Numbered from the stretch's first letter, positions 39,700 to 61,000 are shown. The stretch: DNA of 64,000 nucleotides from Acidobacteriota bacterium (GCA_035471925.1 DATIPO010000059.1:21003-85002); one strand, 5' to 3'. The notes: a model not told the origin generated them from the sequence alone. A program made the numbers and translations.

Positions 39700-41406
39700 G
39701 TGAACATCATGAAGCGACACGCCGCCCAATCTACTGGGGATTTCTGCAAAGATAATCCACAGTTCCAACAGAAATCAGACGCCCTTGGCCGGGCCACTGT
39801 GGCGGCCTTCGCCCTCCTTGTCGGGATGGCCGGGTTGATGCTCCCGTTCAACCAGCCACTGGAAGCTGGGGAGATCCGTGGATTCTGGGAGGAGCTGTCC
39901 CCCATGCCCACGCCCCGGCAAGAGGTGGCCGCGGTCCTGCTGGACGGCGAAATGTATGTCTTGGGCGGGCTGCTCACCGGCGGATTGACCAGCAACGCGG
40001 TCGAGATCTTCAATCCCGAAACCAACCAGTGGCGGACGGGCGTGGCCCTGCCGAGGGGCATCCACCACGGATCGGCGGCGGTGCTGGACGGCAAGATCTA
40101 CTCAGTGGGCGGATTCGGGGCCGGACAGCCTATTTTCGCCACCCCCATCGTGGACGTCTACGAGTTCGATCCCCAGCAGGAAGGGTGGCAGGCGCGGGCC
40201 TCCCTGCCTTCCGTGCGCGGATCGCTCTTCACTGTGGCCTTAGGTGGACGCCTCTACGCCATCGGCGGACGCGATGTCTCCAACAGCAACACCAACGTGA
40301 CCGTCTACGATCCCCAGCAAGATCAGTGGAGCTCGGCCGCCTCCCTTCCGGTGGGACTTGATCATTTAGCCGCCGCCGCCTTGGACGGCAAGATCTACGT
40401 GGCTGGCGGACGCGTGACCCAAGGCGGGGGATTCGTGCGCAACGACGACGCATCCTTCGTCTATGACCCCGACGCCGATGAGTGGACCCCCATTGCCGAC
40501 CTGCCCACCGCCCGATCGGGGCATGCCGCCATCGGAGCCGCCGGCTTCCTGCTGGTCATCGGCGGCGAGATTCCCGGGGTTTTCGGAGTCAACGAGGTCT
40601 ACGATCCCGCCCAGGACCGCTGGTTCGCGCTGCCGGACCTTCCCACGCCTCGCCACGGGCTGGGCATCGTGGCATCGGGCGACCGCATCTTCACCGCCGG
40701 GGGCGGCACCAGGGCCGGCTTCGAGGCTACGGGACAAAGCGAGGTCTTCAACGTTCTGGGCGAGGTCTCCTCGCTGCCGCAGATGGCTGCCGGTCCCGAT
40801 ATCACGTCACGCTTGGTGTTGGGCAATCCCGGGCCGGACTCAGCCACCGTCATGGTGGAGTTCCACAGCGGACCGGAGGGAACCGACCGGGTCCTTTCCC
40901 TGGACGGGCAAAGCGCCTCGCAATTCCAGCGCAGCATCGAGCCCGAGGGCGTCGTCACCTTGACCACCGATCCTGAGCCGTCCAATGTGACCGCAGGCGT
41001 TACGGTCTACTCCAACGCGCCTCTGCTGGGCAACGTGCTCTTCTCCGGACCTCTGGGCTTTGCAGGTGTGGCCTCGACGCGAGGGGGGACCCGGCTCTTC
41101 CTCAACGCCTCGCGCCAGTCGGCTGAGGGTGCCGATTCGGGCGTGGCCCTTTCCGACCTTTCCGGTGTTTCCGGCAACGTGGTCCTCACACTTCTGGCAT
41201 CTGACGGCGCAGAACTGGCTCAGGCCGAGATTTCCTTGCAAGGATTCGGCCATACGGCCCGCTTCCTGTCCGAGATCTTCGGGGACGGCCTTCCAGAGGA
41301 CTTCACCGGCTCCCTGCGCATCGAGTCCGAGGGGCGGCTGGGGGCCGTGGCCATTCTGGTGCGTCCTGGCCAGTTCGCGACGTTGCCGGTGCGTGTCGTG
41401 GAGTAG
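39700..41406 (+). CDS. Secreted Kelch-repeat protein with the C-terminal tandem module
   Basis: Six blades (GEMYVLGG, GKIYSVGG, GRLYAIGG, GKIYVAGG, GFLLVIGG, DRIFTAGG). The last 212 aa (40768..41403) are the shared module. The start is 39700 or 39709. Confidence 0.8.
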   Translation: MNIMKRHAAQSTGDFCKDNPQFQQKSDALGRATVAAFALLVGMAGLMLPFNQPLEAGEIRGFWEELSPMPTPRQEVAAVLLDGEMYVLGGLLTGGLTSNAVEIFNPETNQWRTGVALPRGIHHGSAAVLDGKIYSVGGFGAGQPIFATPIVDVYEFDPQQEGWQARASLPSVRGSLFTVALGGRLYAIGGRDVSNSNTNVTVYDPQQDQWSSAASLPVGLDHLAAAALDGKIYVAGGRVTQGGGFVRNDDASFVYDPDADEWTPIADLPTARSGHAAIGAAGFLLVIGGEIPGVFGVNEVYDPAQDRWFALPDLPTPRHGLGIVASGDRIFTAGGGTRAGFEATGQSEVFNVLGEVSSLPQMAAGPDITSRLVLGNPGPDSATVMVEFHSGPEGTDRVLSLDGQSASQFQRSIEPEGVVTLTTDPEPSNVTAGVTVYSNAPLLGNVLFSGPLGFAGVASTRGGTRLFLNASRQSAEGADSGVALSDLSGVSGNVVLTLLASDGAELAQAEISLQGFGHTARFLSEIFGDGLPEDFTGSLRIESEGRLGAVAILVRPGQFATLPVRVVE

Positions 41407-41435: not shown

Positions 41436-43070
41436 TCACTCGGAAGGCGGAATCCGCTTAAAAACCAGCACCCGGTGTTGCAGGAGCCAGGCCAGCAGAC
41501 GCAGGGCACGGCGGGGCGGCAGATTCCAGGACTCCAGCAGCGAGGAAGCGCGGCAGGGTTGGTCCAGAGGCTCCAGGAGCCGCTGGACGGGGATTCCCTG
41601 CAGAAAAGCCACAGGACGATCAAACCGGGGATGGTAAAGGGCAGGGAAGGGCCGGATGAAGTCCTCCACCAGCACCGGGGCGGGAGCGATCTCGCTGTCC
41701 GCGTGCAGCTTTACACCCAGGTCGGGACGTCTGCGGAGAGGCTCCAGCAGAGCAAGCACGTCCGCCGAATCGGCAGATGGAAGAGACGGCCCCAGGTCCT
41801 CCCAGGATGGACTGCCGTTGAAGGCTGAGGGAAGGCTCCGAGCCCTTTCTCTCCAAAACGACGTGTTCCAGCGGTGGAGGCAGAGGCGCGCATAGCGCGC
41901 CGTCAGTTGCTGATGAAATTCCACCGCCTCACGGCAACGGTCTCGGTAAAAGCGTCGAGCCCAGCGGGCATCGCGGGGACGCGACAGGATCGTATGCACG
42001 GTAGCGGCACCCTGCAGTCCGCTGCGGATGGCGGCTTGGACGCCTTGCGAGGAAAGCGGATCGATGGAAAGAGCTGCTTCGCCCAGCTTGATCCAACAAA
42101 AGTTGACCGGATCGAGGTCGGCTGTCGAAGTGGCGTCACAGGCTTCCACGGCGGTTTGGGGAACGCCCTGGAGACAGGCGTGCAGAAGGTGCGAACGCTC
42201 CAGCAAGGTCTCGTAGATCTCCTGAAGCACATCGCGGTTGGAAAGCGCGGGGTGCTCTCCGCCACCTGCGGCGGTTTCAAGATCTTCCGGCAGCTCGGCC
42301 AGATGCCCGGGATCGAGAAAGACGCAGGCGTTGAAGGTTCCGCCGGGCAAGGGAGCACCCCAATACCAGCAGTCGGAGCGGGCCTCGACGCGGGTCTCGT
42401 CACCCTCCCCAGGCACATCGCGCCAGTAGGCGTAAAGCGCCAGAGTGCGGGGTGCGCTGCGCTCTTTGATTCCGCCCAGGACGCCCCTGCGTCCGCTGGC
42501 ATCGGCAATGAAGCGACAGCGCAGGCGCACCCGTGTAGCGGAATCTTGAAGGGCAACTTCGACAAGCTGCCTGGGGTCTTGATCCTGCTCGACCGGCAGC
42601 AACGGAAGCAGCGGGTATGCCGGCTGCAACAAGCGCACTCCGGCCTGACACGCACCCCTGAGCAGCAAGTCGTCAAAATGGCCTCGTTCGACCTGGAAAC
42701 CAGGCGCATCAGCACCGTCGGCGGTAGAAAGAGGCTCTCCCGCCTCGCGGTCTCCCGATTCGCGTTCGCCCCTGTCGCGGTTTCGGCCTTCCTGGTGTTG
42801 AGTCTCCCGGCCCGGCCACAGGACGTGGGCTTCCCGCGGGCGCAGGAATCCCGCCTTTTCGATGGCCGCACGCATCTCGAGCTGGTCGAGCAGGGGAAGA
42901 ATGCCAGGCGGAAGCGACTCGCCGATGTGGGGACGCGGAAAGGCCAGCTTTTCGACCATGACCACCTGGTAGCCGAGCTGAGCCATGCGTCGGGCAAAGG
43001 ACGAACCGGCGGGACCGGCTCCGATGACGCAAACGTCGCATTCCATTAATTCGGCTAAGCGATCATTCAT
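41436..43070 (-). CDS. FAD-dependent monooxygenase/halogenase-like flavoprotein (LodB/QhpG-like by context)
   Basis: Dinucleotide fold CDVCVIGAGPAGSSFARRMAQLGYQVVMVEK, and a WYWGAP motif resembling the halogenase-type WxWxIP. It is the last gene of the operon. Confidence 0.75.
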   Translation of the reverse strand: MNDRLAELMECDVCVIGAGPAGSSFARRMAQLGYQVVMVEKLAFPRPHIGESLPPGILPLLDQLEMRAAIEKAGFLRPREAHVLWPGRETQHQEGRNRDRGERESGDREAGEPLSTADGADAPGFQVERGHFDDLLLRGACQAGVRLLQPAYPLLPLLPVEQDQDPRQLVEVALQDSATRVRLRCRFIADASGRRGVLGGIKERSAPRTLALYAYWRDVPGEGDETRVEARSDCWYWGAPLPGGTFNACVFLDPGHLAELPEDLETAAGGGEHPALSNRDVLQEIYETLLERSHLLHACLQGVPQTAVEACDATSTADLDPVNFCWIKLGEAALSIDPLSSQGVQAAIRSGLQGAATVHTILSRPRDARWARRFYRDRCREAVEFHQQLTARYARLCLHRWNTSFWRERARSLPSAFNGSPSWEDLGPSLPSADSADVLALLEPLRRRPDLGVKLHADSEIAPAPVLVEDFIRPFPALYHPRFDRPVAFLQGIPVQRLLEPLDQPCRASSLLESWNLPPRRALRLLAWLLQHRVLVFKRIPPSE

Positions 43071-43095
43071 GGTCGCCGAGGGGGTTCGCTGATGG

Positions 43096-44409
43096 TCATG
43101 GAGCGAAGAACTTCGGGCAATCCTTCAGCAGGCGGACATAGGCCTGCAAGCAATAGTGCAGCCATCCGCGGATGTAGTCGCAGGCCGGGCGTCCCCGGTG
43201 AATCACTTCGTGATGGCAGCCGCCGCCGCACAGGTAGCGGGCCCAGCAGCCGCTGCAAGGTTGCTGGAAATGGACGTGTCGCTCCTGCAGCCATTGTGCT
43301 TGGCGGCCACGGTCGAGGCCCTCCTCAAGGCTGCCCATGGCCCCGCTTGGGTCGTCCACGAAGCGGTGGCAGGCAAAAAGGTCTCCCTGAGCCGAGACGC
43401 CGAAATAGCCGCCGCCCGCGCCGCAGGGATAGGGGCGATGGGTTCCGCGGTGGATCTCCTTCAGAGCCGTCGTCAAATTGGAGAAGGGATAGCGCGCCCC
43501 ATCCCGCAGCCGCTCTTCGAACTGACGCCCGCAAGCGATCATTTGATCGAGCATGATCTTGAGGTCGTCGGCTCTCATCTCAGCCCGGCCGGTGGGCGAG
43601 CTGAGCATGGGCGAGAATCCTACGCTGTGGAATCCCATCTCGATCAGGCCCTCCAAGGTAGACGGCAGGTCAAGGCGTCCCGGGGTCACGGTGACGCGGG
43701 CCGAGACCTGCATCCGCCTCTGCTTGGCGAGCAGGGGACGCACCCGCTTGAGGATGCGCTCAAAGCTCCCCCGTCCGTCCTTGAAAGGACGGCTCTGGTC
43801 GTGGCTTTCTCCCAGGCCGTCCAGGCTCACCGTCACCGAGAAGCCATGGCGCTCCAGGAAATCGCCGTCCTGGGAAGTCAAGAGAGTGCCGTTAGTGGTC
43901 AGCGACAGTCCCAGTTTGATTCCCTTGCGGCGGGCCTGTCGGTGAGCATAATCGGCCGCCTGGCGCAGCACCGGGCGGTTGACCAGAGGTTCGCCTCCCA
44001 GGAAGGCCAATTGGACCCTGTCTCCGGGACCGGCCTCCTCAAAAAGCCGGTCGACCGAAGCCAAGGCCGTCTCCAGGGGCATGTTTTGGGCCTTGCCGCC
44101 AAAGGAGCCTTCCTGGGCGTAGCAGTAAACACACCCCAGGTTGCATTTTTGAGCCACGGCCAAAGAGAGAGCCCTCACCGGCATCGACTCTGGAGCCTGA
44201 TCGTCGATGTAGGCGGCAGGCGCATCCAGTCCGAAGCGGCGAAGCAGCTCTTGGGCTTGCTGCTGGTCCCTGCTGTCCCAAGCTTCCTGCAACTGGGCGG
44301 CAGCGTCGTCATCCAGCCCATAGATGCGGGTGCCGTCAGAGAGCAACAAGTGGGGTCCTTGGGCCGTCGGGAAGAGATGTCCGAGGGGGAGCCGGAGCTG
44401 GCTGCTCAT
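43096..44409 (-). CDS. Radical SAM enzyme with a SPASM domain (anSME/QhpD-like maturase)
   Basis: CNLGCVYC (CxxxCxxC). C-terminal Cys-rich SPASM region CGAGGGYFGVSAQGDLFACHRF...CSGCWARYLCGGGCHHE. The N-terminal extension is about 85 aa. Confidence 0.85.
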   Translation of the reverse strand: MSSQLRLPLGHLFPTAQGPHLLLSDGTRIYGLDDDAAAQLQEAWDSRDQQQAQELLRRFGLDAPAAYIDDQAPESMPVRALSLAVAQKCNLGCVYCYAQEGSFGGKAQNMPLETALASVDRLFEEAGPGDRVQLAFLGGEPLVNRPVLRQAADYAHRQARRKGIKLGLSLTTNGTLLTSQDGDFLERHGFSVTVSLDGLGESHDQSRPFKDGRGSFERILKRVRPLLAKQRRMQVSARVTVTPGRLDLPSTLEGLIEMGFHSVGFSPMLSSPTGRAEMRADDLKIMLDQMIACGRQFEERLRDGARYPFSNLTTALKEIHRGTHRPYPCGAGGGYFGVSAQGDLFACHRFVDDPSGAMGSLEEGLDRGRQAQWLQERHVHFQQPCSGCWARYLCGGGCHHEVIHRGRPACDYIRGWLHYCLQAYVRLLKDCPKFFAP

Positions 44410-44448
44410 GCGTTTTAGCCTCCGCAGGACTGGAGATTCGCGGACGTC

Positions 44449-45234
44449 TCAGTCTTGGGGTTCGTCTTCGTCCTGCCCTCGGATGATGAAGCGCAACTGT
44501 TCCCAGTCGCGAAACAGGTCCTCATAGCTGACCAAGTCCGCGTTGCGAAGGGAATAGGTCTTGGGCGTATCGGGTCCACGGTCTTTGTGGAGCCAGTTCT
44601 GCCCTTGGGTGACCCCGTTTTCCTCTTCCGAGTTGACAAAGTCGGGACGCGAGGCCGCCCAGTAGTAGCAGGCACATTCCCGGTAGTCGTTCTGCCAGGG
44701 AGAGCACAGACTCTGGGTCAATTCGCCGGGCTGGGCCAAGGAGGCCGCCAGCACCGCGCTCTCGCCATCGGGGACGCCTTCCTGCTCGAAGATGCGCCGC
44801 ACTTGCAGGTTGACTTCGGTGACCTGCTGGCTGTTGCGGTCATAGAATCCGCAGCGCACCTCGTTGCCGCCGCGCTCGACAATGGAGGCCAGTGCGTTGG
44901 CCCACTCCAAGCTGGATCCGCTGAGGTTCTGGACCGGACCGCCGCTTACTTGCGGGCCGCTCACTTGGGTCCAGATGTCCTCGCCCTCGACGCTGACCAG
45001 CAACTGGCCGCGGAAGCCTTCCAACTGAGGGTCTTCGATGTCGACCACCAGCGGACGGGCTTCATGCAGGACGAGTCCCACAAAAATGCGCCGCCAAATG
45101 TTGCGGAAATCAAACTCCAGCCCAGGAAAGCAGTTGGAGATGGCGGTGACCGGCTGGGTGGCGGGAGGGTTGCCGCGGGCCCGGTATTGAAGCTGGGCCG
45201 AGACGTTCTTGGGATCGATCTTGTTGTTGGCCAC
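44449..45234 (-). CDS. LodA/GoxA-like quinoprotein, C-terminal part (separate cistron)
   Basis: GELTQSLCSPWQNDYRECACYYWAASRPD resembles the LodA ...LTKRMACPWQADFFNC...YWWPPQSP region (from memory). The tail LFRDWEQLRFI resembles the LodA C-terminus. The gene has its own GTG start with Shine-Dalgarno sequence AAGGAGG. Confidence 0.6.
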   Translation of the reverse strand: MANNKIDPKNVSAQLQYRARGNPPATQPVTAISNCFPGLEFDFRNIWRRIFVGLVLHEARPLVVDIEDPQLEGFRGQLLVSVEGEDIWTQVSGPQVSGGPVQNLSGSSLEWANALASIVERGGNEVRCGFYDRNSQQVTEVNLQVRRIFEQEGVPDGESAVLAASLAQPGELTQSLCSPWQNDYRECACYYWAASRPDFVNSEEENGVTQGQNWLHKDRGPDTPKTYSLRNADLVSYEDLFRDWEQLRFIIRGQDEDEPQD

Positions 45235-45244
45235 GGTTCCTCCT

Positions 45245-46969
45245 TCAGGAGAGACTGGCGATCCAGCGTTCGATGACTTCCAGTCCCGTCCGCCCGGTGC
45301 CCGGCACGGGACGCGAAAAGGGTGCGTTCATAGGGTGTCCGGGATTGCGCAAGATGCGGACGATGGCCGAGTTGGCGGGATCGCCCGGCACCACCAGCGG
45401 CTGTCCCCGGACGGCCCCGGAAAGAGCACCCTGCGCCGGTTGATTGAGCAGGTGCTGAATGAGCTGGTCGGGATCGGCGAAGCGCGACGACAAGGGCTCG
45501 GCGCCGCTGGGGATGCCGGCGTGCAGCGGAGCGCGCGACTGGAAGTGCTGGATCAGCCTGCGCAAGTCGTCCTCGGGAGAAGCGTCCGCGGGCGGCTCAG
45601 GCTGGTCGGGCTCCTCGTCCCTGATGACCCGCCCTTCGGCCGAGGCCTGAATCTGGGCCCGCTGGCGCCGCGTCAGGGCCAGGTGCAGTCCGTCGCTGCC
45701 CCGCATCATGGCGGGCATCTTGTGGCGTCCGGCGTTGGAGAGGTCGCCCACTTCGCGAAACTGACGGACGATGTCCAGGAACCAGGCATTGCTACCGTCC
45801 GCTAGCGCCTGTACGGTATTGGCGTGAAAGTTGCGGACGGCTGAAGGGTCGACGTTCATGTTGAAGATCGGCTCGAAAGCTCGCCCGTAGCCTTGGTCTT
45901 GGCCCGCCATGTTGTTGCTGTTGTTGCCCACGCCGCCGACGTTCTGGTTGCCGTTCATGACACGGGTTTCCATCAGACGTACCGTATCCAGGGCGTGGCG
46001 GACAATCTCCTGGGGACGCGAGGCCTCCACATCTTCGACCTCGGGACCCAGGGCCATCTGTTCCAACTCGTCGGCCAAGTTGCGCACGTGGAGGCTGTCA
46101 GGAGCGAAGTCGGGCGGTCCCGAGGAAATGCGGGCCAGGGCCGTCAGCGTCTCGGCTTGGCCCCCGTCCTCGGCGGGCAGGTCCAGGCTGACTTCAACGA
46201 TTCCGTCGCAGGCGTCGTCGAGATAGCCCACGCTTACATAGCGTCCGGTCTGAGAATTGAAGCGTCCAGTGTAGATGTTGCCCGGCACGGTAGAGGTCGG
46301 AGTGCCCGGCTGTCCGTCGAAGTGATTGTCCCATGTGCCTCGAGAGGCGTCGTAAACGTCGTCCACCGTGTTGGGATCGCCGGCCGCGGGTCCATAGACC
46401 TTGCCCGGGCCCGGAACGAAGCGGAGCCGGATCTCGGGGAACTCGTCGTTGGGCTCCAGGTACTGGACCGATCCGAAGGGGATTGACTTGCCATCCTTGA
46501 AATTGACGCACTCTCCTCGAAGATCATGGTTCTGGTGGTCGCTGAAGGGGCCGCTGTCGGCCTCCACCTTGTCGCCGTCGCGGCCGGTGCGGCGAAAAGC
46601 CTTGAGATTGGCAGTGCGGACGCGCCAGCGCATGTCCGAGGGAGACAGTCCCAAGTCCTCTAAGTGCTGCGCTGTAAGCGGCTCCAAGGAGCCTTCGTCT
46701 TCAAAGGCCGCCCACACTTCGAGAAAGGGCGCCACCGGGCGGATGCGTCCTTGCCCATCACGGAAACGGACCGAGGAAGGCGTCTCAAGTCCGGTTATCC
46801 TGCCGTCCTCCACCACCAGTGTCTCGGCGGGAATCAGTTCACGATAGGCCGTTGGATCCTCCTTGAAGTCCTGCAAATCATAGTTGTCCATAGGCTGGTC
46901 AGAGGACCCGATACGAGCGATAGCCATTGGTGGCAATATGCGAATCTGCTTGATTGTCCTGACGGGCAT
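45245..46969 (-). CDS. LodA/GoxA-like quinoprotein, N-terminal part, with an extra C-terminal tail
   Basis: IRILPPMAIARIGSS resembles LodA hPxIGVARLGN. SSGPPDFAP resembles GSPDFAP. KMPAMMRGSDG resembles LPLMPMNSGSN (all from memory). ATG 46969 is preferred over the listed start at 47023. Confidence 0.6.
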   Translation of the reverse strand: MPVRTIKQIRILPPMAIARIGSSDQPMDNYDLQDFKEDPTAYRELIPAETLVVEDGRITGLETPSSVRFRDGQGRIRPVAPFLEVWAAFEDEGSLEPLTAQHLEDLGLSPSDMRWRVRTANLKAFRRTGRDGDKVEADSGPFSDHQNHDLRGECVNFKDGKSIPFGSVQYLEPNDEFPEIRLRFVPGPGKVYGPAAGDPNTVDDVYDASRGTWDNHFDGQPGTPTSTVPGNIYTGRFNSQTGRYVSVGYLDDACDGIVEVSLDLPAEDGGQAETLTALARISSGPPDFAPDSLHVRNLADELEQMALGPEVEDVEASRPQEIVRHALDTVRLMETRVMNGNQNVGGVGNNSNNMAGQDQGYGRAFEPIFNMNVDPSAVRNFHANTVQALADGSNAWFLDIVRQFREVGDLSNAGRHKMPAMMRGSDGLHLALTRRQRAQIQASAEGRVIRDEEPDQPEPPADASPEDDLRRLIQHFQSRAPLHAGIPSGAEPLSSRFADPDQLIQHLLNQPAQGALSGAVRGQPLVVPGDPANSAIVRILRNPGHPMNAPFSRPVPGTGRTGLEVIERWIASLS

Positions 46970-47137
46970 GATTTTCAAAATGTCATAGGACCGATCATCT
47001 GTCAAGGAAAATATCAGCAGCAAAAAATGAAGGTTTCATTAGGGTTGGATGGGTTTCCTTCAGCAACCACTGAGCGAGGCAAGTCGCTCCTGAGAACAGA
47101 GGCTCCACAATCGGCAATAAGGTACACTGACCGGCTG

Positions 47138-47533
47138 ATGAAAGTGTGTCCCTTCTGTTCTCAGCCCTTGGAAGATTCGGCTACTCAATGTACGCGCTGC
47201 GGACGTTCTCAGATCTTCAACGAAGATGACCGGCCGGCTCTAGGTTGGCCGGGCTGTTTGCTTTTCGGGACGACACTCGTGCTTTCCATCGTGGGATTGG
47301 CCCTTTTGATGGGACTTCTCTTTGGATGGATGCCCCGCGCCTTGAACAGCACCTGGGGCGGAAGCGCACTGCTGCTGCTCCTAATGGCCTTGGCGGGCCA
47401 CCGCCTCCGCCGTTACCTGGAAGGCCGTCAGGCCCAGACGCAAGAGGGGGAGGGAGCGCCGGAGGTCGAGATCTTGAGCCCAGGCGAAGAAGAAGCTTCG
47501 CTGCCTCAACCCGATAAGCCTCGAGAGGATTAG
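47138..47533 (+). CDS. Zinc-ribbon membrane protein (131 aa)
   Basis: CPFC...CTRC ribbon, two TM helices and an acidic tail. Only the C-terminal third of the listed ORF 46664..47533 is plausible. Confidence 0.5.
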   Translation: MKVCPFCSQPLEDSATQCTRCGRSQIFNEDDRPALGWPGCLLFGTTLVLSIVGLALLMGLLFGWMPRALNSTWGGSALLLLLMALAGHRLRRYLEGRQAQTQEGEGAPEVEILSPGEEEASLPQPDKPRED

Positions 47534-48405
47534 AGATCGGCGCTGAAGAGGACGTTCTCTTCTCCCCGCTGTTGGATCAGCTTCTTGATTTGCTTCACCA
47601 ACTCGTCGCGGCGCTTGCTCAGAGCCTTGATCTCAGGCGGTCGCAGGACGTCTGAGAAGGAGCTTTCGATGTTTTTTTTGTCGAGCTCCTGGAGCTTCTC
47701 CCAAACTTCGCGATCGACGTACGGCACCTTGTCAGGGGCGTGAAGGTACTTAAAGCGGCGAAAAGACTGAGTGTGGTCGATCAGCCAGATATTCCAATCA
47801 GGATCGATGAGCAGGTTACCTTGATGACGGTCGATGTTAGCCACCAGATTGTCAAAAAGGTTCATGGTCAGCATCTGAGCCGTCCACAGCCACTCGTCGG
47901 GAGGTTCGATGCCATTTTGGCGGCGGTCCCGCTCCATAGTGGCATGCTCAACCCAGGCCTGAAGGGTGCCCCGGTGGCCCTCGATCTCGCGGATGACGGT
48001 GGGTGGAACCAACTTCAATCCCAGCATCCGGCTGAGGCGGAACGCCGCCACTTCGAAGATGGCGTCGTCGCGGTGATTCTGCATGAAGGACGGATGTCGC
48101 GGATCTGGAATCTGACCCTCGCGGGAAATGTCGCGAAAGGCGGCATGCATCTGGATGCCGTCCTTCTCAAGCAGGACCTTGCGGGTCTTGTTGAGGCCCT
48201 CGGATATCTGCTTCCAACTGACCACCCGCGCAGTGCGCAGAAACTCCAGCGCTTCCTCTTCTGTGTCAAAAGGCACAGGCGTGCCCGCGGGACTGACCCA
48301 GGTCAGCGGGTGATCATATTTCACTTCCAGCGGCCCGGCTTGAAAGGCCCCGAAACTAGACACGCTGAGAATGATCAGCGATAGAACATAGCCAATCGAC
48401 TTCAT
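47530..48405 (-). CDS. Secreted PI3/PI4-kinase-like (HipA-like fold) protein
   Basis: Signal peptide MKSIGYVLSLIILSVSSFGAFQA. Catalytic-loop-like NIDRHQGNLLI and metal-binding-like WLIDHTQSF. The gene is visibly AT-richer than its neighbours. Confidence 0.55.
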   Translation of the reverse strand: MKSIGYVLSLIILSVSSFGAFQAGPLEVKYDHPLTWVSPAGTPVPFDTEEEALEFLRTARVVSWKQISEGLNKTRKVLLEKDGIQMHAAFRDISREGQIPDPRHPSFMQNHRDDAIFEVAAFRLSRMLGLKLVPPTVIREIEGHRGTLQAWVEHATMERDRRQNGIEPPDEWLWTAQMLTMNLFDNLVANIDRHQGNLLIDPDWNIWLIDHTQSFRRFKYLHAPDKVPYVDREVWEKLQELDKKNIESSFSDVLRPPEIKALSKRRDELVKQIKKLIQQRGEENVLFSADL

Positions 48406-48586
48406 GTTGCTTCTTCTCCCGAATAGTAGGGAAGCACTCCGCATGCCAAACAATGCTTCGCCGGAACCGCCAGTTGAGGCCGCGAAGATCAAACATTTCG
48501 ATGACGCTGTCTAACCATTTGGTTAGATTGAACGCCCCCGAGAAGTTGCAGCCCGGTTATCGGATGCCGCAATCAGGCATTTGGCT

Positions 48587-49495
48587 TCATTTTTCCTGGC
48601 GGGCACGCAGGGAGGAGCGGTGGAGGAGGTTCTTGAGGGATTCAGGGGACAGGGATTGGATGTCGTCCTGGTACTTGAGGACGGCGCCCAAAGTGTCTTC
48701 CACCACTTGTTCGTCAAGTTGATGGCGGTCGAGGGCGATGAGCGCTGAAGTCCAGTCGAGGGTCTCGGCCACGCCAGGAGCCTTGAAAAGTTCCAGGGAG
48801 CGGAGTTCCTGCACTAAGGCGGTCACTTGGCGGGCCAGTTCTTCCCCGGCTTGGGGACGTTTGGCCCGCACGATGGCCAACTCGCGTTGGAAAGAGGGAT
48901 AGTCGATCCAGTGGTAGAGGCAGCGGCGCTTCAGGGCGTCATGAATTTCGCGGGTACGGTTGGAGGTGAGAATCACCACCGGCCGCTCCTGGGCGTGAAT
49001 GGTCCCCAACTCGGGCACGGTCACCTGAAAATCAGAGAGCAGCTCCAGCAGAAAGGCCTCGAACTCTTCATCGGCCCGGTCGAGTTCATCGATCAGCAGC
49101 ACCGGCGCACGCCCTTCGCTGGAGGCTTCCAGAGCTTGTAAAAGGGGACGTGTGAGCAGGAACTCGCGGCTGTAGAGGCTGCGTTCGATGTCGTCTCGGG
49201 GTGCACCCGAGGCTTCCATCACGCGCAGGTGGAGAAGTTGGCGGGCATAGTCCCATTCATAAAGGGCCGAAGCGGCGTCCAGTCCTTCGTAGCATTGCAG
49301 GCGGATCAAGCGGGTGTCGAGGATGCGGGCCAGTACCTTGGCCACCTCGGTCTTGCCCACTCCCGCTTCGCCTTCCAGAAAAAGAGGCTTTTCCAGCTTG
49401 AGGCTGAGGAAAACCGCCGTCTCCAGTCCTCGCTCGGCGATGTAGTCGTGGGTGAGGAGTTGCTCATGCATCTCCTCAATGGATTGGGGTTTCAT
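48587..49495 (-). CDS. MoxR-type AAA+ ATPase (CoxD-like)
   Basis: Walker A GEAGVGKT and Walker B VLLIDELDRA. ATG 49495 (MKPQSIEEMH) is preferred; the listed N-terminal extension to 49801 is Arg/Pro-rich junk. Confidence 0.85.
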   Translation of the reverse strand: MKPQSIEEMHEQLLTHDYIAERGLETAVFLSLKLEKPLFLEGEAGVGKTEVAKVLARILDTRLIRLQCYEGLDAASALYEWDYARQLLHLRVMEASGAPRDDIERSLYSREFLLTRPLLQALEASSEGRAPVLLIDELDRADEEFEAFLLELLSDFQVTVPELGTIHAQERPVVILTSNRTREIHDALKRRCLYHWIDYPSFQRELAIVRAKRPQAGEELARQVTALVQELRSLELFKAPGVAETLDWTSALIALDRHQLDEQVVEDTLGAVLKYQDDIQSLSPESLKNLLHRSSLRARQEK

Positions 49496-49700
49496 GTGGG
49501 TCTCGCCTCCTCGAAGAGGCGCACACGGCAGCGGCGCGGACGTCGATCGCCGCCTCTTCCTGCGCCGGTGTCCTGTCCATCCCGAATAGGACGCCCACGC
49601 GTCTGGGGGGCCGCCTGCCGGCTCCGGCATCCTCGCCAGTGTGAAGGAGCTTGAAGTTGCCGCACATTGAAACCAGGCTGGCGCCGCACTTGTGAGCGCC

Positions 49701-50561
49701 TCACTGGCCCAGCGCTGAGCGGACGGCCCGCTTGAAGTAGACGCCGCACATGGCCCGCCGGTAATCGCGCGGAGCATGGAGGTCGTCCATGACATCGTCA
49801 CCCAATTCGTCCATCAGGGCCTGGGCGGCCGCGCTCAGGGAGTCTTCGTCCAAGCGCGAGCCGGCCAGAGCTAGCTCGGCGGCTGGAGAACGGGTGGCGC
49901 TAGGGACGGCTCCGGTGACGGCCACGCGGGCTGAGGCGCATTCTTCATCCTCTACCTCTAAGATGACGCAGATGCCCACCAAGGCGTAGCGCGAGGCGGG
50001 ATGCGGCAGCTTGACGTAAGAGGTGGCCTTGTCGGCCAGACTGGGGATTTCGACGGCGAAGAGCAATTCCTCTGCTTTGAGATCGGTTTCGAACAGGCCG
50101 GTGAAAAAGTCATCGGCCGCCACCGAACGCTGGCCTTCAGGACCCATCAGATGCAGCGTGGCGCCGGCGGCCAGCACCACGGCCGGCGGGTCGGAGGCGG
50201 GATCGGCGTGGGCCAGGTTGCCTCCCAGGGTTCCCCAGTTGCGCACTTGCGGATCACCGATGCGCGAAGCCGCTGAAGCCAGGGCAGGGCAGTGCTCCTG
50301 GACGTCGGCTGAGGCGGCGATCTGGGCGTGGGTTGTCAAGGCGCCGATGCGCAGGGAGCCGCCATCGGCAGCAATCTGGCGCAGTTCGTCGAGCCGACCG
50401 ATGTCGACCAGTTTCTGGGGCTGGGCCAAGCGCAGGTTCATGGCCGGAATCAGGCTGTGCCCTCCCGCCAGTGCTTTGGCATCGCCGGAAGCCAGCATTT
50501 GGAGGGCTTCCTGCAGGGACTCCGCGCGTTCATATTGGAATGATGATGGCCGCATGCTCAT
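49701..50561 (-). CDS. FAD-binding medium subunit (CoxM-like), second locus
   Basis: ALAGGHSLIPAMNLRLAQP and GTLGGNLAHADPASDPP. The start overlaps the large-subunit stop (ATGA). Confidence 0.9.
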   Translation of the reverse strand: MSMRPSSFQYERAESLQEALQMLASGDAKALAGGHSLIPAMNLRLAQPQKLVDIGRLDELRQIAADGGSLRIGALTTHAQIAASADVQEHCPALASAASRIGDPQVRNWGTLGGNLAHADPASDPPAVVLAAGATLHLMGPEGQRSVAADDFFTGLFETDLKAEELLFAVEIPSLADKATSYVKLPHPASRYALVGICVILEVEDEECASARVAVTGAVPSATRSPAAELALAGSRLDEDSLSAAAQALMDELGDDVMDDLHAPRDYRRAMCGVYFKRAVRSALGQ

Positions 50562-52930
50562 GATTGCTTCCTTGTGACGTTATTGGCCTTGGCCTCCTGG
50601 ATGGCTTTCCAAACCCGGGGCGGGGTCATGGGCATTTCGATCTGCTCCACGCCCAGCGGACGCAGGGCGTCGATGACGGCGTTGTAGACAGTGACCGTGC
50701 TGGCAATGGTGCCCGTTTCGCCGATTCCCTTGACGCCCAGCGGATGGTGGGGCGAAGGAGTTTCGGTGTGGCCTAGTTCGAAGTTGGGGAACATGTCGGC
50801 CCGCGGCACGGTGTAGTCCATCATCGAGCCTGTGATCAATTGTCCCTGCTCGTCGTAGGCAGCGCCCTCGTAGAGAGTCTGGCCCACACCCTGAACCACT
50901 CCGCCGTGGACTTGTCCAGCCACGATGACGGGGTTGATCTGGGGGCCGCAGTCGTCCACGGCGATATAGCGCTTGAGTTCCACGTGACCGGTCTCGCGGT
51001 CCACCTCCACCACTGCCAGATGGCAGCCGAAGGGATAAACGAAGTTGGGCGGATCATAGAACTGACTGGCTTCCAGCCCGGGATCCATGCCTTCCGGCAG
51101 ATCCCAGGCCACGGTGGCCATGAGGGCCAAGTCCTGAATCGTCTTATGCTCTTCGGGCGAGCCTTTGACGAAAAACTTGCCGTCTTCGTAGGCGATGTCT
51201 TCCTGGGCCGCTTCCAGCAGATGGGCGGCCAGAGCCTTGCACTTGTCCTTGACCTTGCGGGCGGCCAGGGCCAAGGCGGCGCCTGAGACGGGGGTAGTGC
51301 GGCTTCCGTAAGTGCCCCAACCCATGGGAGTCTGGTCGGTGTCTCCGTGGACCACTTCGATGTCTTCGACCGGGAAGCCGAGTTCGTCGGACACGATCTG
51401 GGCGAAGGTGGTCTCTTCGCCCTGACCATGAGGATTAGTGCCGATCATGACTTGGACTTTCCCAGTGGCCGAGACGCGCACGATACAGGACTCCCACAGT
51501 CCGCCCTGGAAGCCCGTGGCTCCGGCCACCTGGCTGGGTCCCAGGCCGCAGATTTCGGCGTAGGTGGTGACGCCGACTCCCAGCAGGCGACCGTCCTGGC
51601 GGGCTTGCTCCTGTTCTTGGCGCAGATCTTCGTAGCCGGCCATCTCCAGAGCCTGGTCGAGCACGGCCTGGTAATTGCCGCTGTCGTAAGTGAGGCCGGT
51701 CGCCACGTCGTAGCCGTCCTGGAAAGGCGGGATGAGGTTCTTGCGGCGCAGCTCGACGGGATCCATCTCCAGTTCGGCAGCCAGCTTGTCGACTAGCCGC
51801 TCCACCAGGAAGATGGCCTCGGGACGTCCGGCGCCGCGGTAGGCGTCAGTGGGCGTTGTGGTTGTGAAGACCCCGATCGATTCGCAGCGGGCGTGCTCGA
51901 AGCGGTAGACGTTGCAGTACATGAGCCCATGCAGAATGGTGGGGACGCCGGGTCCAGCCGTGGACAAGTATCCTCCCATGGCAGCGTAGACCTTGCCGCG
52001 AATAGCCACCATGGTCCCGTCCTTCTTGGCGGCCAGGTCGACGTATTCGACATGGTCGCGTCCGTGGATGGTGGCCTGGTAGTTTTCGCTGCGGGTCTCC
52101 GTCCACTTGACGGGCCGTCCCAGCTTGCGGGCTGCCCAAGCGACAAGGATCTCGTCGGCATAAACCGGAATCTTGCTGCCGAATCCGCCGCCCACTTCTT
52201 CAGCCACCACCCGCAGCTTGTTGTCGGGAATGCCCAGCACCAGACCCATTGCGTGGCGGTGAATGTGAGGATTCTGGCTGGTGCACCAGACCGTCATCTC
52301 TCCCGAAGCATCGTTGTACTGGGCCATGGCGGCGCGGGGTTCCATGGCGGTGGGCAGCAGGCGCTGCTGGACGATGCGTTCGGAAACCACCACGTCGGCT
52401 TCTTCGAAAGCCTTCTCGACTTCTTCGTCGCCGCTGGAGGCCACCCAGCGGAAGGCGATGTTATTGGGGACTCCGCCATAGAGGCGGGGAGCGCCTTCCT
52501 GAGTGGCTTTTTCAGGGTCGACGACAGCGTCGAGAGGCTTATATTCAACTTCCACTAGTTCGGCGGCGTCTTCGGCCTGATAGCGGCTTTCGGCCAGCAC
52601 AACAGCCACTCCGTCCCCCACGTAGCGCACGCGCTTCTTGGCCAGGGCGGGGTGGTCGGGCGTCTTGAGGTCGGCGTCGGGGACCAGCCAGGCGCAAGGT
52701 ACAGGCTCGCAGTCCAAATCCTGGCCTGTGAAAACGGCCATCACGCCGGGAGCGTCCTTGGCGGCTCGGATGTCGATGCTTTTGATGCGGGCGTGAGCGT
52801 GGGGCGAGCGGACGACGGCCATGTGGAGGGTCCTTGGCAGCACCATGTCGTCTGTGTAGAGAGCTTTGCCGGTGATCAGCCGGGGATCTTCGCGGCGCTT
52901 GATTCCGGAGCCGAAGATGCGCGTGCTCAT
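50558..52930 (-). CDS. Molybdopterin-binding large subunit (form-II CoxL-like), second locus
   Basis: ATG 52930 overlaps the small-subunit stop (ATGA). N-terminus [14 protein letters not shown]. The active-site loop is [11 protein letters not shown]. Confidence 0.9.
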
Positions 52931-53409
52931 GAGGAGCCTCCCTTCATGTGGCGGGCCGCTTCTTGCACGGCGGCGACGATGTTCTGGTAGCCGGTGCAGC
53001 GACAAAGATTGCCTTCCAGTCCGTGGCGGATCTCGGCTTCGCTGAGTTGGTCAGGCGAGGAGTGCTGTTCCAGCAGGGCGGCGGCGGCCATGATCATGCC
53101 TGGTGTGCAGTAGCCGCACTGCAGCCCATGCTTCTCCCAAAACGCTTCTTGCATGGGGTGCAGTTGGCCGTCCTGGGCCAGGCCCTCGATAGTGGTGACT
53201 TGGCGGCCGTCTGCTTGAGCCGCCAGGCAAGCGCAGGACTTGAGGGAGCGCCCGTCCATGTGGACGGTGCAGGCGCCGCACTGACTGGTGTCGCAGCCGA
53301 TGTTGGTGCCCGTCAGCCCCAGCTCCTCGCGCAGGAAGTGGACCAGCAGCATGCGGGGTTCGATGTCGCGCTCGTAGCGCGTCCCATTGACAGTGAGGGA
53401 GACTTTCAT
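52927..53409 (-). CDS. [2Fe-2S]-binding small subunit (CoxS-like), second locus
   Basis: [11 protein letters not shown] and CGYCTPG...CRCTGY. Confidence 0.9.
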
Positions 53410-57846: not shown

Positions 57847-58090
57847 TGCTTTGGTTAGGTTGGTTGAGGTCAGTGGTTGGCTTATTAGTTTATGGTCAAC
57901 CTGGATTCATGCCGATCTTCTTGGTAAGCTCTTTTCGACCAAAATCTCGTCGGGGGACCGATATACTATATTTCTTTGGTTCGGGTGGCCAGTCGGTGGA
58001 CCGGTCGAACTTTGAACTGCTCGGTTGCTCTCTGATGTCGGACTCAAGCAGTCCGTCTTCAAGCGGGGCTGGGAGGCTCGGATTCTTGAT

Positions 58091-61000
58091 ATGCCTGTGA
58101 AATCATCTATCGCCATGGTTCTGTTGTGGCTGGCGGGGTTGACCCCGCTGATTGCCCAGCCCACCTTCTCGAAAGTGTTCACGCCCGATACGATTGGGCC
58201 AGACAGCGCCAGCCGCCTGCGCTTTGACATCACCAACGGCAGTCCCGTACCAGTGGAGAACCTGGCCTTTACCGACATCCTGCCCGCCGGCCTCAGCATC
58301 GTTGACCCCACGGTGTTGACCAACACCTGCGGGGGAACGCTGACCGCGCCCGATGGAGGAGACACCATCACGCTGAGCGGAGGCATGGTGGCCGGCAGCG
58401 GCGCATGCTTCATCGAGGTGGATGTGACAGGTTCGATGGCTGGCACCTTCATGAACGTCTCGGGCGATTTGACCTCTGATGCCGGAAACAGCGGTCCGGC
58501 TACCGACGACTTGACGATCAGCACCGACCGTCCCCTGTTCAGCAAGAGCTTTTCTCCGCCCTCCATTCCCTTCGGGGCCCGCTCCACTCTGACATTCACG
58601 ATCGAGAACCAGACCATGGGATTCTTCGTCGGCCTGGCCTTTGTCGATGATTTGCCGACGGGAATGGAGATTGCCGACCCACCTGCCCTCACCAATACTT
58701 GCGGTGGAACTCTGACCGCCACCTCCGGCACCACCTCGATTTCCCTGCTGAATGGCATTCTCGCGGGGCTCAGCACCTGCGAGATCAGTTTCGACGTGGT
58801 GGCTCGCGCCGCGGGCGTGCTGATCAACTCGTCCGGCGCGCTGGCCGCCCGCAATCAGATCAATCAAGACCGCGCCAGCGGATTCGCCAACGCCGACCTG
58901 CAAGTCATCACTGAGACCGTAGGCATCGAAAAGGCCTTTACCGATGATCCTGTTCCGCCCGGCGGCACGGTGACGCTCGAGTTCACCATCAGCAACCGCG
59001 ACCGCGATTTCGAAGCGGTCAACGTCGCCTTCAGCGACAACTTGGATGCCACCCTGACAGGATTAGTGGCCACAGGGCTGCCCCAAATGGACGTGTGTGG
59101 CCCAGGCTCACTGCTCTCCGGAACCAGCTCCGTCTCTCTCACAGGCGGGTCAATCCCCGCTGGCGACTCCTGTACTTTCAGCGTGACCTTGCAGGTACCG
59201 GCGGCGGCCGTTCCTGATGAATATCCCAACGTTTCATCTGGCGTGTCGGGCGATTTGGGCGGTGTGGGCTTCATGAGCCAGGGCGCTCAGGACAGCCTTT
59301 TCGTAACCGGGGCCCCGGTGTTGACCAAGACTTTTCTAACCAACCCTGTCGGAGCCGGCGATACGACCACCATTGAGTTCACGATCGACAACGCCAACGA
59401 CGCCTCCGTTTCCAGCATCGCCTTTTCCGACAACCTGACGGCCTTTCTTTCCGGCGCAATGGTGACTTCGCTGCCGGCGAGTGGTTTTTGCGGAGGAGGA
59501 TCGACGCTGGTTACGGCGGTGGTTACAGGCGAGCTGTTTCTCTTCATGAGCAACGGCTCCCTCCCCGCCAATGACTCCTGCACTTTCCAGGTGGATCTCC
59601 TCATCCCCGAAGGCGGCAGCGGCGGAGACTTCGTCAACACGACATCCAATATCACCGCCGACTTGGAAATCATCGACATGCCCCCGGAGCCCCAGACGGG
59701 CAATTCAGCCAGCGCCACGCTTACAGTGGTGGGGGGACCGCTTCTGTCCAAGGCTTTCACCGACGATCCGGTGGACGCGGGCCAGACGGTGACGCTGGAA
59801 TTCACCCTGACCCACGATGAATTCGCGCCCGCTGACGCCACGGGAATTACCTTCACCGACGAGTTGAATGCCGTCGTGGCGGGTCTGGCGGCCGTCGGCT
59901 TGCCCCAAAACGACATTTGCGGCATGGGCTCTCAGATCTCTGGAAGCAGCCTCCTGACCCTGACGGGTGGGGCGTTGGCACCGGGCGCGTCCTGTACTTT
60001 CGCGGTGACGCTGCAGGTCCCCGCTGGAGCCTTGCCCGGCAGCTTCCTCAATACCACTTCTTTGGTGACCTCGACTGTATCAGGGGTCACGACCAGCAGC
60101 GCCGCAGCGAGCGACACGCTGATCATCGGCGGCGTGGAATTCACCAAGACGTTCATCGGTGATCCAGTTGCACCGGGCGATACCGTCGATCTTGAATTCA
60201 CTATCACCAACGACACCCTCTCCGACGTGACAGGTTTCTTCTTCACCGACAGCCTGAGTTCCGTGATTTCGGGCTTGCAAGTCGAGGGCGCTCTGCCCAC
60301 CGAGCCCTGCGGAGTGGGTTCGTCGGTGAGTGGAACCACCAACCTGATCTTCTCGGGGGGTATGGTGACGGCAGGGACTTTCTGCACTTTCAGCGTCACT
60401 CTCAGGGTCCCAATGGGCGCGGACGGCGACTTTCCAAATGTGACGAGTTTTCCGACCTTCATGATCGGGGGTCAAGCCGCCTCGCTTGAACCGGCCACCG
60501 ACATACTCTCCGTCACTTCGGAGCTTCTCTCGATTTCCAAGTCGTTTACGGGCGATCCTGTGCCTCCGGGAGGGACGGTGACGCTGGAATTCACAGTCAC
60601 CAACCTCAGCCCCTCCAGCCAGGCGGACTCCATTACCTTCACCGACGACCTGGACGCCGCTCTTTCCGGTCTCGAGGCAGTAGGCTTGCCGGTCAACGAC
60701 GTTTGCGGCATGGGCTCGCAGTTGAGCGGAACCAGCCTCCTGACTCTTACTGGGGGCGTGCTCTCCGCCGGCGGATCCTGCACCTTCGACGTGACCCTCC
60801 AGGTGCCCGCCATGGTGCCGGGCGGGCTGAGCTTTACCAACACCACCAGCAGCGTGAGCGGGCAGATCAACGGAATTGCCGTCACCGGTCCCCCGGCCTC
60901 CGACAACTTGCTGGTCAGCCTCCTGTCGTTGAGCAAGCAGTTTCTGAGCGCCGCGGTTCCCAATGGCAGCGTCACGCTGCGCTTTATGATCGAGAATCTG

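Follow-up and report, generated by a model that had tools for sequence, protein, structure and literature searches.

A probable cysteine tryptophylquinone operon joining a LodA-related split protein to QhpD- and QhpG-type maturases

Introduction

Cysteine tryptophylquinone (CTQ) has been listed for just three enzymes, quinohemoprotein amine dehydrogenase (QHNDH), LodA, and GoxA, with two apparently unrelated biogenesis routes (2025 review, PMC11951088). In QHNDH, thioethers are made first, and the tryptophan is then dihydroxylated on the complex of QhpC with QhpD (PMC7876137, PMC11951088). A census of lodA-like genes from 2015 never mentions a gene for a radical S-adenosylmethionine (SAM) enzyme, and the lodB-like genes that it lists for the entries inspected here carry adjacent or near-adjacent locus tags (PMC4417212). 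In LodA and GoxA, the flavoprotein LodB or GoxB is the only maturase, whereas at the locus described here a radical SAM gene stands between g2, the gene for the putative cofactor subunit, and g4, the flavoprotein gene. This locus lies in a stretch of 64,000 nucleotides from an Acidobacteriota bacterium (the window; all coordinates count from its first letter) and is a cassette of four tightly packed minus-strand open reading frames (ORFs), g1-g2-g3-g4, within positions 41436-46969. As analyzed below, the operon probably encodes a two-subunit, LodA-related quinoprotein of the CTQ type together with two dedicated maturases, with g2 being matured in the manner of QhpC; the broader claim, namely modification of a g2 loop by g3 and g4, is very likely correct.

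Results

Searches of the PDB with the single sequences of g1 and g2 reached E-values of only ∼0.5-0.8 to GoxA and LodA, which is why family profiles were needed. With a profile of the g1+g2 family, comprising fused and separate homologues, LodA was matched at E=6.8e-7 and GoxA at 1.4e-4; on LodA, the match consisted of three collinear segments, one at the N-terminus, one corresponding to the GYLDD...GPPDFAPD block, and one to the PGELT...PWQNDYREC block. For structural comparison, an AlphaFold2 (AF2) model of P0204 was used, a natural g1-g2 fusion ∼50% identical to the window proteins (predicted local distance difference test score, pLDDT, 85; predicted template modeling score, pTM, 0.89). It yielded 43 fold matches in the PDB at E<=1e-3 (Foldseek), every one of them a LodA or GoxA chain, the best at 5e-12. 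The homology of g1+g2 to LodA/GoxA at the level of the family is real and firm, though the thresholds for membership are not reached: the window proteins score 20.5 against a cut-off of 750 for GoxA in NCBIfam, and 16.4 against 600 for LodA. Many g1 homologues have a precomputed PF17990 match. The motifs quoted in a first-pass annotation of this DNA are all present in g1-g4 (those of g1 being IRILPPMAIARIGSS, SSGPPDFAP, and KMPAMMRGSDG), and its view that g1 is LodA-like was borne out once the similarity was checked, both by the profile and by the matches of the fusion model.

The relationship of g2 to LodA is more restricted. It is confined to a motif of ∼45 residues around the cofactor cysteine, and the C-terminal 75 residues gave no LodA match in the PDB, so that the g2 counterpart of the CTQ tryptophan of LodA is not assignable by sequence. 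The segment of g2 spanning amino acids (aa) ∼50-145 gave non-significant PDZ matches in Foldseek (HtrA 3mh6, probability 0.96, E 0.11; RseP PDZ2; GRASP), and two g2 homologues bear PDZ_6 (PF17820). Outside the LodA-like motif, g2 looks like a PDZ-like domain joined to a small cofactor module. It was no longer regarded as a complete LodA C-terminal domain, given that the model of g2 alone had no significant fold match and that the PDZ-like matches were the only, weak, ones. Thus, of the earlier proposal that g2, with its core GELTQSLCSPWQNDYRECACYYWAASRPD and its tail LFRDWEQLRFI, resembles the C-terminal part of LodA, the ∼45-residue motif stands and the remainder of the protein does not.

The split into two genes is genuine. 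Homologues of g2 exist as stand-alone proteins of 250-290 aa (>1,400 clusters at 90% identity), and g1 and g2 are separate ORFs in most related loci, often with a 4-nucleotide (nt) overlap. It is, however, not universal, since natural g1-g2 fusions occur (P0204, P0219, P0223 with 121 members, and P0207; loci L042, L069, L070, and L075). Therefore, g1 and g2 form one unit.

The most conspicuous part of g2 is a loop of 22 residues that follows the pattern C177-x2-W-x2-D183-x3-C187-x-C189-x2-W192-x5-D198. In 94 aligned g2 homologues, C177, P179, W180, D183, C187, C189, Y191, W192, R196, P197, D198, and W214 are, among others, invariant. The pattern C.PW..D...C.C..W.....D was found in 120/120 g2 hits and in all 19 listed proteins of a diverged sister family (see below); when representative hits were examined, it was present in 116 of 148, most of the other 32 stopping short of the loop region and four breaking off or diverging within or just past the motif. 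These four are apparently truncated or frameshifted gene calls. The loop resembles the cofactor sites of both known types of CTQ enzyme. PWQADFFNC of LodA (3weu numbering) aligns with PWQNDYREC of g2, which equates D183 with D512 and C187 with C516; we take these to be the essential aspartate and the CTQ cysteine of LodA, respectively, and the numbering agrees with the alignment. When g2 was aligned with QhpC from P. putida (1jmx_G), hmmsearch and hhalign gave the identical register: C177=C27, D183=D33, C187=C37, C189=C41, W192=W43, P197=P48, and D198=D49. In QhpC, the CTQ is formed by C37 and W43, and QhpD makes three Cys-Asp/Glu thioethers, two of which are C27-D33 and C41-D49. All residues of the CTQ and of these two thioethers have invariant counterparts in g2, in which the corresponding bonds are predicted; the third pair of QhpC, C7-E16, has no counterpart in the g2 alignment. 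For QhpC, Asp33, the Trp42-Trp43 pair, the three thioethers, and the action of QhpG on the cross-linked protein have been confirmed (PMC7876137). Only a core of 22-40 residues of g2 aligns with QhpC. However, when 18,950 NCBIfam models were compared with 24 g2 members, only two models matched more than one member, namely QH_gamma (24/24) and LodA (23/24). The Cys- and Trp-rich stretch of g2 had been singled out as a candidate cofactor site in the first-pass annotation; its likeness to QhpC is more specific than was realized there, and we infer cross-linking and quinone formation on this loop.

The confidence of the structural models is low where conservation is highest. In the model of the P0204 fusion, the only segments with pLDDT <50 are the loop (624-642), the linker between the g1 and g2 parts (433-441), and the C-terminal tail (702-709); in the model of g2 alone, they are the loop (178-182 and 190-196) and residues 32-39. 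Low AF2 confidence of the most conserved loop would be in keeping with a conformation that needs cross-links.

Which tryptophan would be modified bears on the type of CTQ formation. If the cofactor were made in the manner of LodA, C187 would be joined to a distant tryptophan, for example W214, the flavoprotein would act like LodB, and the radical SAM enzyme would merely add stabilizing thioethers or be unrelated. The upstream half of the motif (PGELTQSLCSPWQND) is indeed closer to LodA than to QhpC, W214 does not vary in the g2 family proper, and the CTQ tryptophan of LodA lies 65 residues after the cysteine, which we counted in favor of this option. Still, it appears improbable: phenylalanine stands at the W214 position in many proteins of the sister family, in which the rest of the loop is retained along with the radical SAM enzyme and the flavoprotein, W192, P197, and D198 align with W43, P48, and D49 of QhpC, and g4 is of the QhpG type and not of the LodB type (see below). 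Because the W214 equivalent is often Phe in the sister family, and W192 is invariant, W192 is favored as the modified residue.

The third gene, g3, encodes a radical SAM enzyme with a Cys-rich SPASM domain, as had been recognized from its sequence: the CxxxCxxC motif (CNLGCVYC; C89, C93, and C96; aa 89-96, nt 44122-44145) is present, and seven cysteines at aa 328-412 (nt 43174-43428) make up the full SPASM set. Its best family in NCBIfam is QhpD (TIGR03906; 331 bits, profile positions 46-458 of 467). The ∼85 aa at the N-terminus of g3, initially regarded as a special extension, turned out to be an ordinary N-terminal domain common to QhpD and CteB. Whether g3 might group with sulfatase maturases had also been raised, and it does not: the model for anaerobic sulfatase maturases, anSME (TIGR03942), ranked tenth with 97 bits against a cut-off of 349, and this assignment was rejected. 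The next-best families after QhpD are thioether-forming peptide maturases (PapB, 264 bits, with the nif11-type and SCIFF models in the range of 222-264 bits), and the best match in the PDB is thioether-forming CteB (5wgg; E 9e-52, 360 residues aligned). This placement in the clade of radical SAM/SPASM peptide maturases would also be expected if g2 were a precursor similar to those of peptides made by ribosomes and modified post-translationally (RiPPs), the cross-linked loop of which is released as a peptide, with g1 acting as a tailoring or immunity protein. That reading was rejected as highly improbable. The loop is internal to a conserved protein of 260 aa, no protease or transporter is conserved beside the cassette, and fusion of g2 to g1, to a ferritin-like domain, or to both would make no sense for a released peptide.

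For g4 (GAGPAG at aa 17 and WYWGAP at aa 235), the QhpG model NF049967 gave 271.9 bits over its full profile (1-423), which passes the cut-off of 240; 9/10 g4 orthologues from other loci pass it, too. LodB and GoxB gave 94 and 74 bits, both with cut-offs of 400. The initial designation as LodB/QhpG-like, therefore, needs to be narrowed to QhpG (272 vs 240 bits), the LodB type being out of range (94 vs 400 bits). Relatives of g4 in the PDB are flavin halogenases and QhpG itself (7ctq). Relative to the QhpG profile and to its orthologues, g4 has a charged low-complexity insertion, QHQEGRNRDRGERESGDREAGEPLSTADGADAPG (∼aa 88-125, window 42700-42810).

The flavin halogenases among these relatives raise the question of whether the product is CTQ. 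Modification of the g2 loop by g3 and g4 could instead result in thioether or other cross-links plus a Trp or Tyr that is hydroxylated once, halogenated, or altered in another way, so that the loop would carry some other protein-derived cofactor or be cross-linked for structural reasons alone. By sequence, the solved structures closest to g4 are the halogenases, and a WxWxxP-like motif is present; moreover, the loop contains the invariant residues Y191 and W180, its spacings differ from those of QhpC by one residue, and the statistics of its homology to QhpC are weak. We nevertheless consider a product other than CTQ rather unlikely: g4 and its orthologues pass the equivalog cut-off of QhpG over the full profile, all six positions modified in QhpC are invariant in g2, and the D-x3-C motif, which LodA, GoxA, and QhpC share, is restricted to CTQ enzymes.

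The distribution of the cassette was assessed by a pattern scan with one genome per species, which found 370 loci, the best 80 of which were used for all synteny counts. In 71/80 loci, g1-g2-g3-g4 occur in the same order and orientation, and contig ends interrupt another six. Thus, the linkage of the radical SAM gene, the loss of which would have spoken against the first-pass annotation, holds in all but three loci and those ending with their contigs. The nearest related locus is in a metagenome-assembled genome of an Acidobacteria member (64-72% protein identity), and an exhaustive HMMER search returned 614 clusters at 50% identity (E<=1e-3). The hosts belong to at least nine phyla (Acidobacteriota, Myxococcota, Actinomycetota, Bacteroidota, Verrucomicrobiota, Planctomycetota, Pseudomonadota, Chloroflexota, and Gemmatimonadota) and include Streptomyces and myxobacteria, the cassette being widespread in soil bacteria; Bradyrhizobium/Rhizobium plasmids and other plasmids carry the cassette as well, with its genes annotated there as “hypothetical protein,” “radical SAM protein,” and “FAD-dependent monooxygenase.” The four-gene arrangement is far beyond chance. 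That the four genes are mere neighbors, with g3 and g4 serving an unlinked QHNDH or otherwise having nothing to do with g1 and g2, would agree with the three of ∼74 untruncated loci in which g1-g2 lack adjacent g3/g4 (L004, L039, and L062). Of all readings weighed here, it is the least probable and was rejected, considering the order kept across at least nine phyla, the same set of parts in rearranged order in the sister family, and the finding that no other gene cluster is common to more than nine loci; a canonical QhpC-type gene was not noticed beside g3/g4, although no scan of the window for qhpABC-like genes was made. In L062 (8739-10328, 12354-13634), the place of g3/g4 is taken by another radical SAM gene together with one of the ATP-grasp type, and in L039 (945-2759, 8020-9537), a flavin amine oxidase gene and one for a DyP-type peroxidase lie nearby.

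Most relatives of the cassette have a fifth partner, a ferritin-like PF12902 protein of ∼480 aa with two ExxH-type motifs, present in ∼70/80 related loci (e.g., L012:4185-5615, L033:4130-5587, and L003:4008-6989). Its gene is directly upstream of g1, or it is fused to the N-terminus of g1 (proteins of 990-1,030 aa) or to g2, with natural ferritin-g1, g2-ferritin, and g1-g2-ferritin fusions being found. The protein matches part of the VioB model (E 1e-15), far below the VioB cut-off. When ORFs of the neighborhoods were clustered, no cluster other than those of the cassette and the ferritin-like gene occurred in >9/81 loci. In the diverged sister family, the g2 core is fused to a ferritin-like domain (P0365, P0371, P0374, P0401, P0386, and P0363), and one member is a g1-g2-ferritin triple fusion of 1,110 aa. 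The sister locus L081 (3329-9948) contains the same parts rearranged, in the order g1-like, QhpD-like radical SAM, g2-ferritin fusion, and QhpG-like. Ferritin-like genes have also been noted beside fungal lodA-like genes (PMC4417212). On the Rhizobium plasmid pRL9b4 (L082), a ferritin-like gene of 909 aa lies next to the cassette in divergent orientation, and g4 is followed by a tyrosinase gene.

A search of the whole 64-kb window found no ferritin-like partner, and the nearest relatives of the window do not have one, either. It is likewise absent from L002, L005, and L080, the g1 proteins of which, like that of the window, end in an additional module of ∼125 aa. Most g1 homologues cover just positions 1-445 of the window's g1 as query, and those of L001-L005, L020, L064, and L080 cover its full length; the module is restricted to g1 proteins that either have no separate ferritin-like gene or have the ferritin fused. 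The same ∼125-aa module sits at the N-terminus of P0147 and P0188, and a Pfam search with it gave no match. Its sequence in the window reads …PLVVPGDPANSAIVRIL…HPMN…IERWIASLS.

The ORF listing reproduced the four minus-strand genes of the first-pass annotation with the same coordinates, and with the same gaps of 10, 39, and 25 nt between g1/g2, g2/g3, and g3/g4, respectively (Table 1). An alternative TTG start of g1 at 47023 would yield 592 aa; judged by the homologues, which start at an equivalent “M..I..IRILPP,” the ATG at 46969 is to be preferred. The public gene call of g1 (P0121, 548 aa) starts ∼26 codons downstream of this ATG, and the conserved N-terminus IRILPPxAIARxGSS is therefore left out of it. 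By eye, no obvious signal peptide was seen in g1 or g2. A scan for promoters and terminators gave nothing above chance inside the cluster. The G+C content of the window is 59-67%, and there are no tRNA genes in it. The flanks of the cassette are not conserved with it: 47138-47533 (+) is a small zinc-ribbon membrane ORF divergent from g1, 47530-48492 (−) encodes a PI3/PI4-kinase/Fam20C-like protein, and 39700-41406 (+) encodes a 568-aa Kelch-repeat protein convergent with g4. Farther away, a MoxR-like ATPase followed by CoxM- and CoxL-like molybdenum hydroxylase subunits is encoded at 48587-53005 (−), and an ORF of 1,879 aa is found at 58025-63664 (+).

Table 1. Positions in the window of the cassette genes and of features within them.
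Feature	Position	Strand	Extent	Description
g1, large subunit	45245..46969	-	574 aa from ATG	LodA/GoxA-like scaffold protein
Block of g1 best conserved	46028..46228	-	g1 aa 248-314	GYLDDACDG...SSGPPDFAPD, common with LodA (DWYDDISDG...GSPDFAPE) and GoxA
g1 C-terminal module	45248..45622	-	g1 aa 450-574, ∼125 aa	Confined to a subset of relatives
Shine-Dalgarno sequence of g2	45239..45244	-		AGGAGG, directly after the g1 stop TGA (45245-45247) and 4 nt ahead of GTG 45232-45234
g2, small subunit	44449..45234	-	261 aa, GTG start	N-terminal conserved segment, PDZ-like beta domain, and C-terminal cofactor module
PDZ-like beta domain (weak evidence)	44800..45087	-	g2 aa ∼50-145	
Predicted cross-linked cofactor loop	44641..44706	-	g2 aa 177-198, 22 residues	CSPWQNDYRECACYYWAASRPD
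g3	43096..44409	-	437 aa	QhpD-like radical SAM/SPASM enzyme
g4	41436..43070	-	544 aa	QhpG-type flavin adenine dinucleotide (FAD) monooxygenase

Discussion

The division of labor that would best combine these observations is as follows. g1 would supply a scaffold of the LodA/GoxA type and g2 the cofactor, carried on its 22-residue loop. g3 would bind unmodified g2 and install intramolecular thioethers between C177 and D183 and between C189 and D198, upon which g4 would dihydroxylate W192, and C187 would become joined to the indole ring of W192 to give CTQ. D183, placed four residues before the CTQ cysteine as are D512 relative to C516 in LodA and D33 relative to C37 in QhpC, would lie next to the quinone and might act as the catalytic base. 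Mature g2 would then assemble with g1 and oxidize a primary amine or an amino acid. From the computed homologies, conserved residues, synteny, and fusions, we infer each of these chemical steps, as well as the identity of the tryptophan, the substrate, the electron acceptor (O2 or another), and the cellular location.

Several observations weigh against a CTQ-type quinoprotein matured in this manner. On the side of the scaffold, g1 is just below the gathering score of LodA_N in Pfam (19.4 vs 26.3 bits), as is g2 for LodA_C (23.4 vs 25 bits), the AF2 model of g2 alone (pLDDT 80) found no significant fold match in the PDB, and the TM-scores of the P0204 model are low globally (0.36-0.39 for LodA and 0.25-0.31 for GoxA), which makes g1-g2 a distant relative of LodA/GoxA. 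On the side of the loop, QH_gamma gives g2 14.7 bits with an NCBIfam cut-off of 50, the spacings deviate from QhpC by one residue (C187-W192, 5 vs 6; C189-D198, 9 vs 8), and comparison of the g2 family with QhpC by hhalign reached a probability of 7.9% (P=0.004), the match being short and statistically weak. The QhpC alignment used for the latter was poor because most QhpC entries in the databases are truncated gene calls, and a shuffle control was therefore added, which the similarity exceeded, a point in favor of the relationship: only 0.26% of 8,000 composition-matched shuffles attained the median score of the real g2-QhpC comparisons (p ∼0.003). As to the maturases, g3 is below the cut-off of QhpD (331 vs 453 bits), its best match, which indicates a sister subfamily; a folded protein of 261 aa is an unusual substrate for a radical SAM enzyme; and neighbor clustering found no QhpE-like protease, QhpF-like exporter, or heme subunit conserved near the cassette. 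To these are added the three loci without adjacent g3/g4.

Compared with QHNDH, the locus has a similar pair of maturases, g4 passing the QhpG cut-off and g3 having QhpD as its best family, and the g2 loop has the Cys...Trp of the QhpC CTQ, two Cys-Asp pairs, and the aspartate four residues before the CTQ cysteine. It differs in that the predicted substrate is a loop within a protein of 261 aa, whereas QhpC is a peptide of ∼80 aa with a cleaved 28-residue leader, and in that just two of the three thioether positions are matched in g2, with spacings off by one. The partner subunit of g2 is LodA-like, and no diheme QhpA, propeller QhpB, protease QhpE, or exporter QhpF was found conserved nearby by neighbor clustering; g3 stays below the QhpD cut-off and g2 far below that of QH_gamma.

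With LodA and GoxA, the only significant fold relatives, g1+g2 share collinearity with a single chain, the motif PG[DE]LT...PWQxDxxxC with the aspartate four residues before the CTQ cysteine, and a downstream gene for a halogenase-like flavoprotein. In contrast to the one chain of ∼650-820 aa in those enzymes, there are usually two genes (574 + 261 aa in the window), the Pfam and NCBIfam thresholds of LodA/GoxA are missed by the window proteins, the global fold match is weak (TM 0.36-0.39), g2 is not LodA-like outside the motif, and the flavoprotein is of the QhpG type with an extra C-terminal region and not of the LodB type. The possibility that the family corresponds to Group IV of the 2015 census, or to its unclassified entries, was considered and rejected; the entries inspected are single chains of 481-1114 aa (PMC4417212).

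Two further systems share individual parts. Like the maturases CteB, PapB, and those of SCIFF, g3 has CxxxCxxC and the full set of SPASM cysteines and aligns with CteB over 360 residues; its predicted substrate, however, is a protein subunit and not a short leader-core peptide, and genes for RiPP export or cleavage are missing. The pairing of VioA with VioB, an amino-acid oxidase with a protein of the VioB/RebD domain type, is relevant to the relatives only, in which the ferritin-like partner partly matches VioB; this match is partial and far below the cut-off, and the partner is absent from the 64-kb window. The locus would work like QhpC/QhpD/QhpG maturation but is not QHNDH, and in spite of its relationship to LodA/GoxA, the thresholds of these families place it outside them.

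Full-text literature searches (CTQ, QhpD/QhpG, and LodA with radical SAM; subscription-only papers not covered) found no description of such a cassette, in agreement with the first-pass annotation, which knew of no LodA-like system that is split or linked to a radical SAM gene. What appears to be new, judging from the sequences, is the use of QhpD/QhpG-type maturases on a LodA-type scaffold, by which both routes to CTQ would be joined. Going further, the family may be a fourth class among the tryptophylquinone enzymes and may link LodA/GoxA and QhpC in evolution, with a thioether-caged CTQ that a radical SAM enzyme would build in a folded subunit of a LodA-like protein and, mostly, a di-iron ferritin-like/VioB-domain partner; we put this forward tentatively, and with more doubt than assent. 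If the reading of the ferritin-like partner were true, new chemistry might result, for example, oxidation of amines or amino acids coupled to reduction of O2 without H2O2, or imine coupling, and the cofactor might even be a new Trp-derived species instead of CTQ.

LodA-like oxidases draw interest for antimicrobial and biosensor use. Should the proposed maturation prove true, a new class of quinoproteins would be present in at least 370 species, a common origin of the CTQ-bearing segments of LodA and QhpC would be suggested, and a radical SAM/SPASM “peptide” maturase would be acting on a protein subunit. Hundreds of genes now annotated as “hypothetical protein” would thereby gain a testable function.

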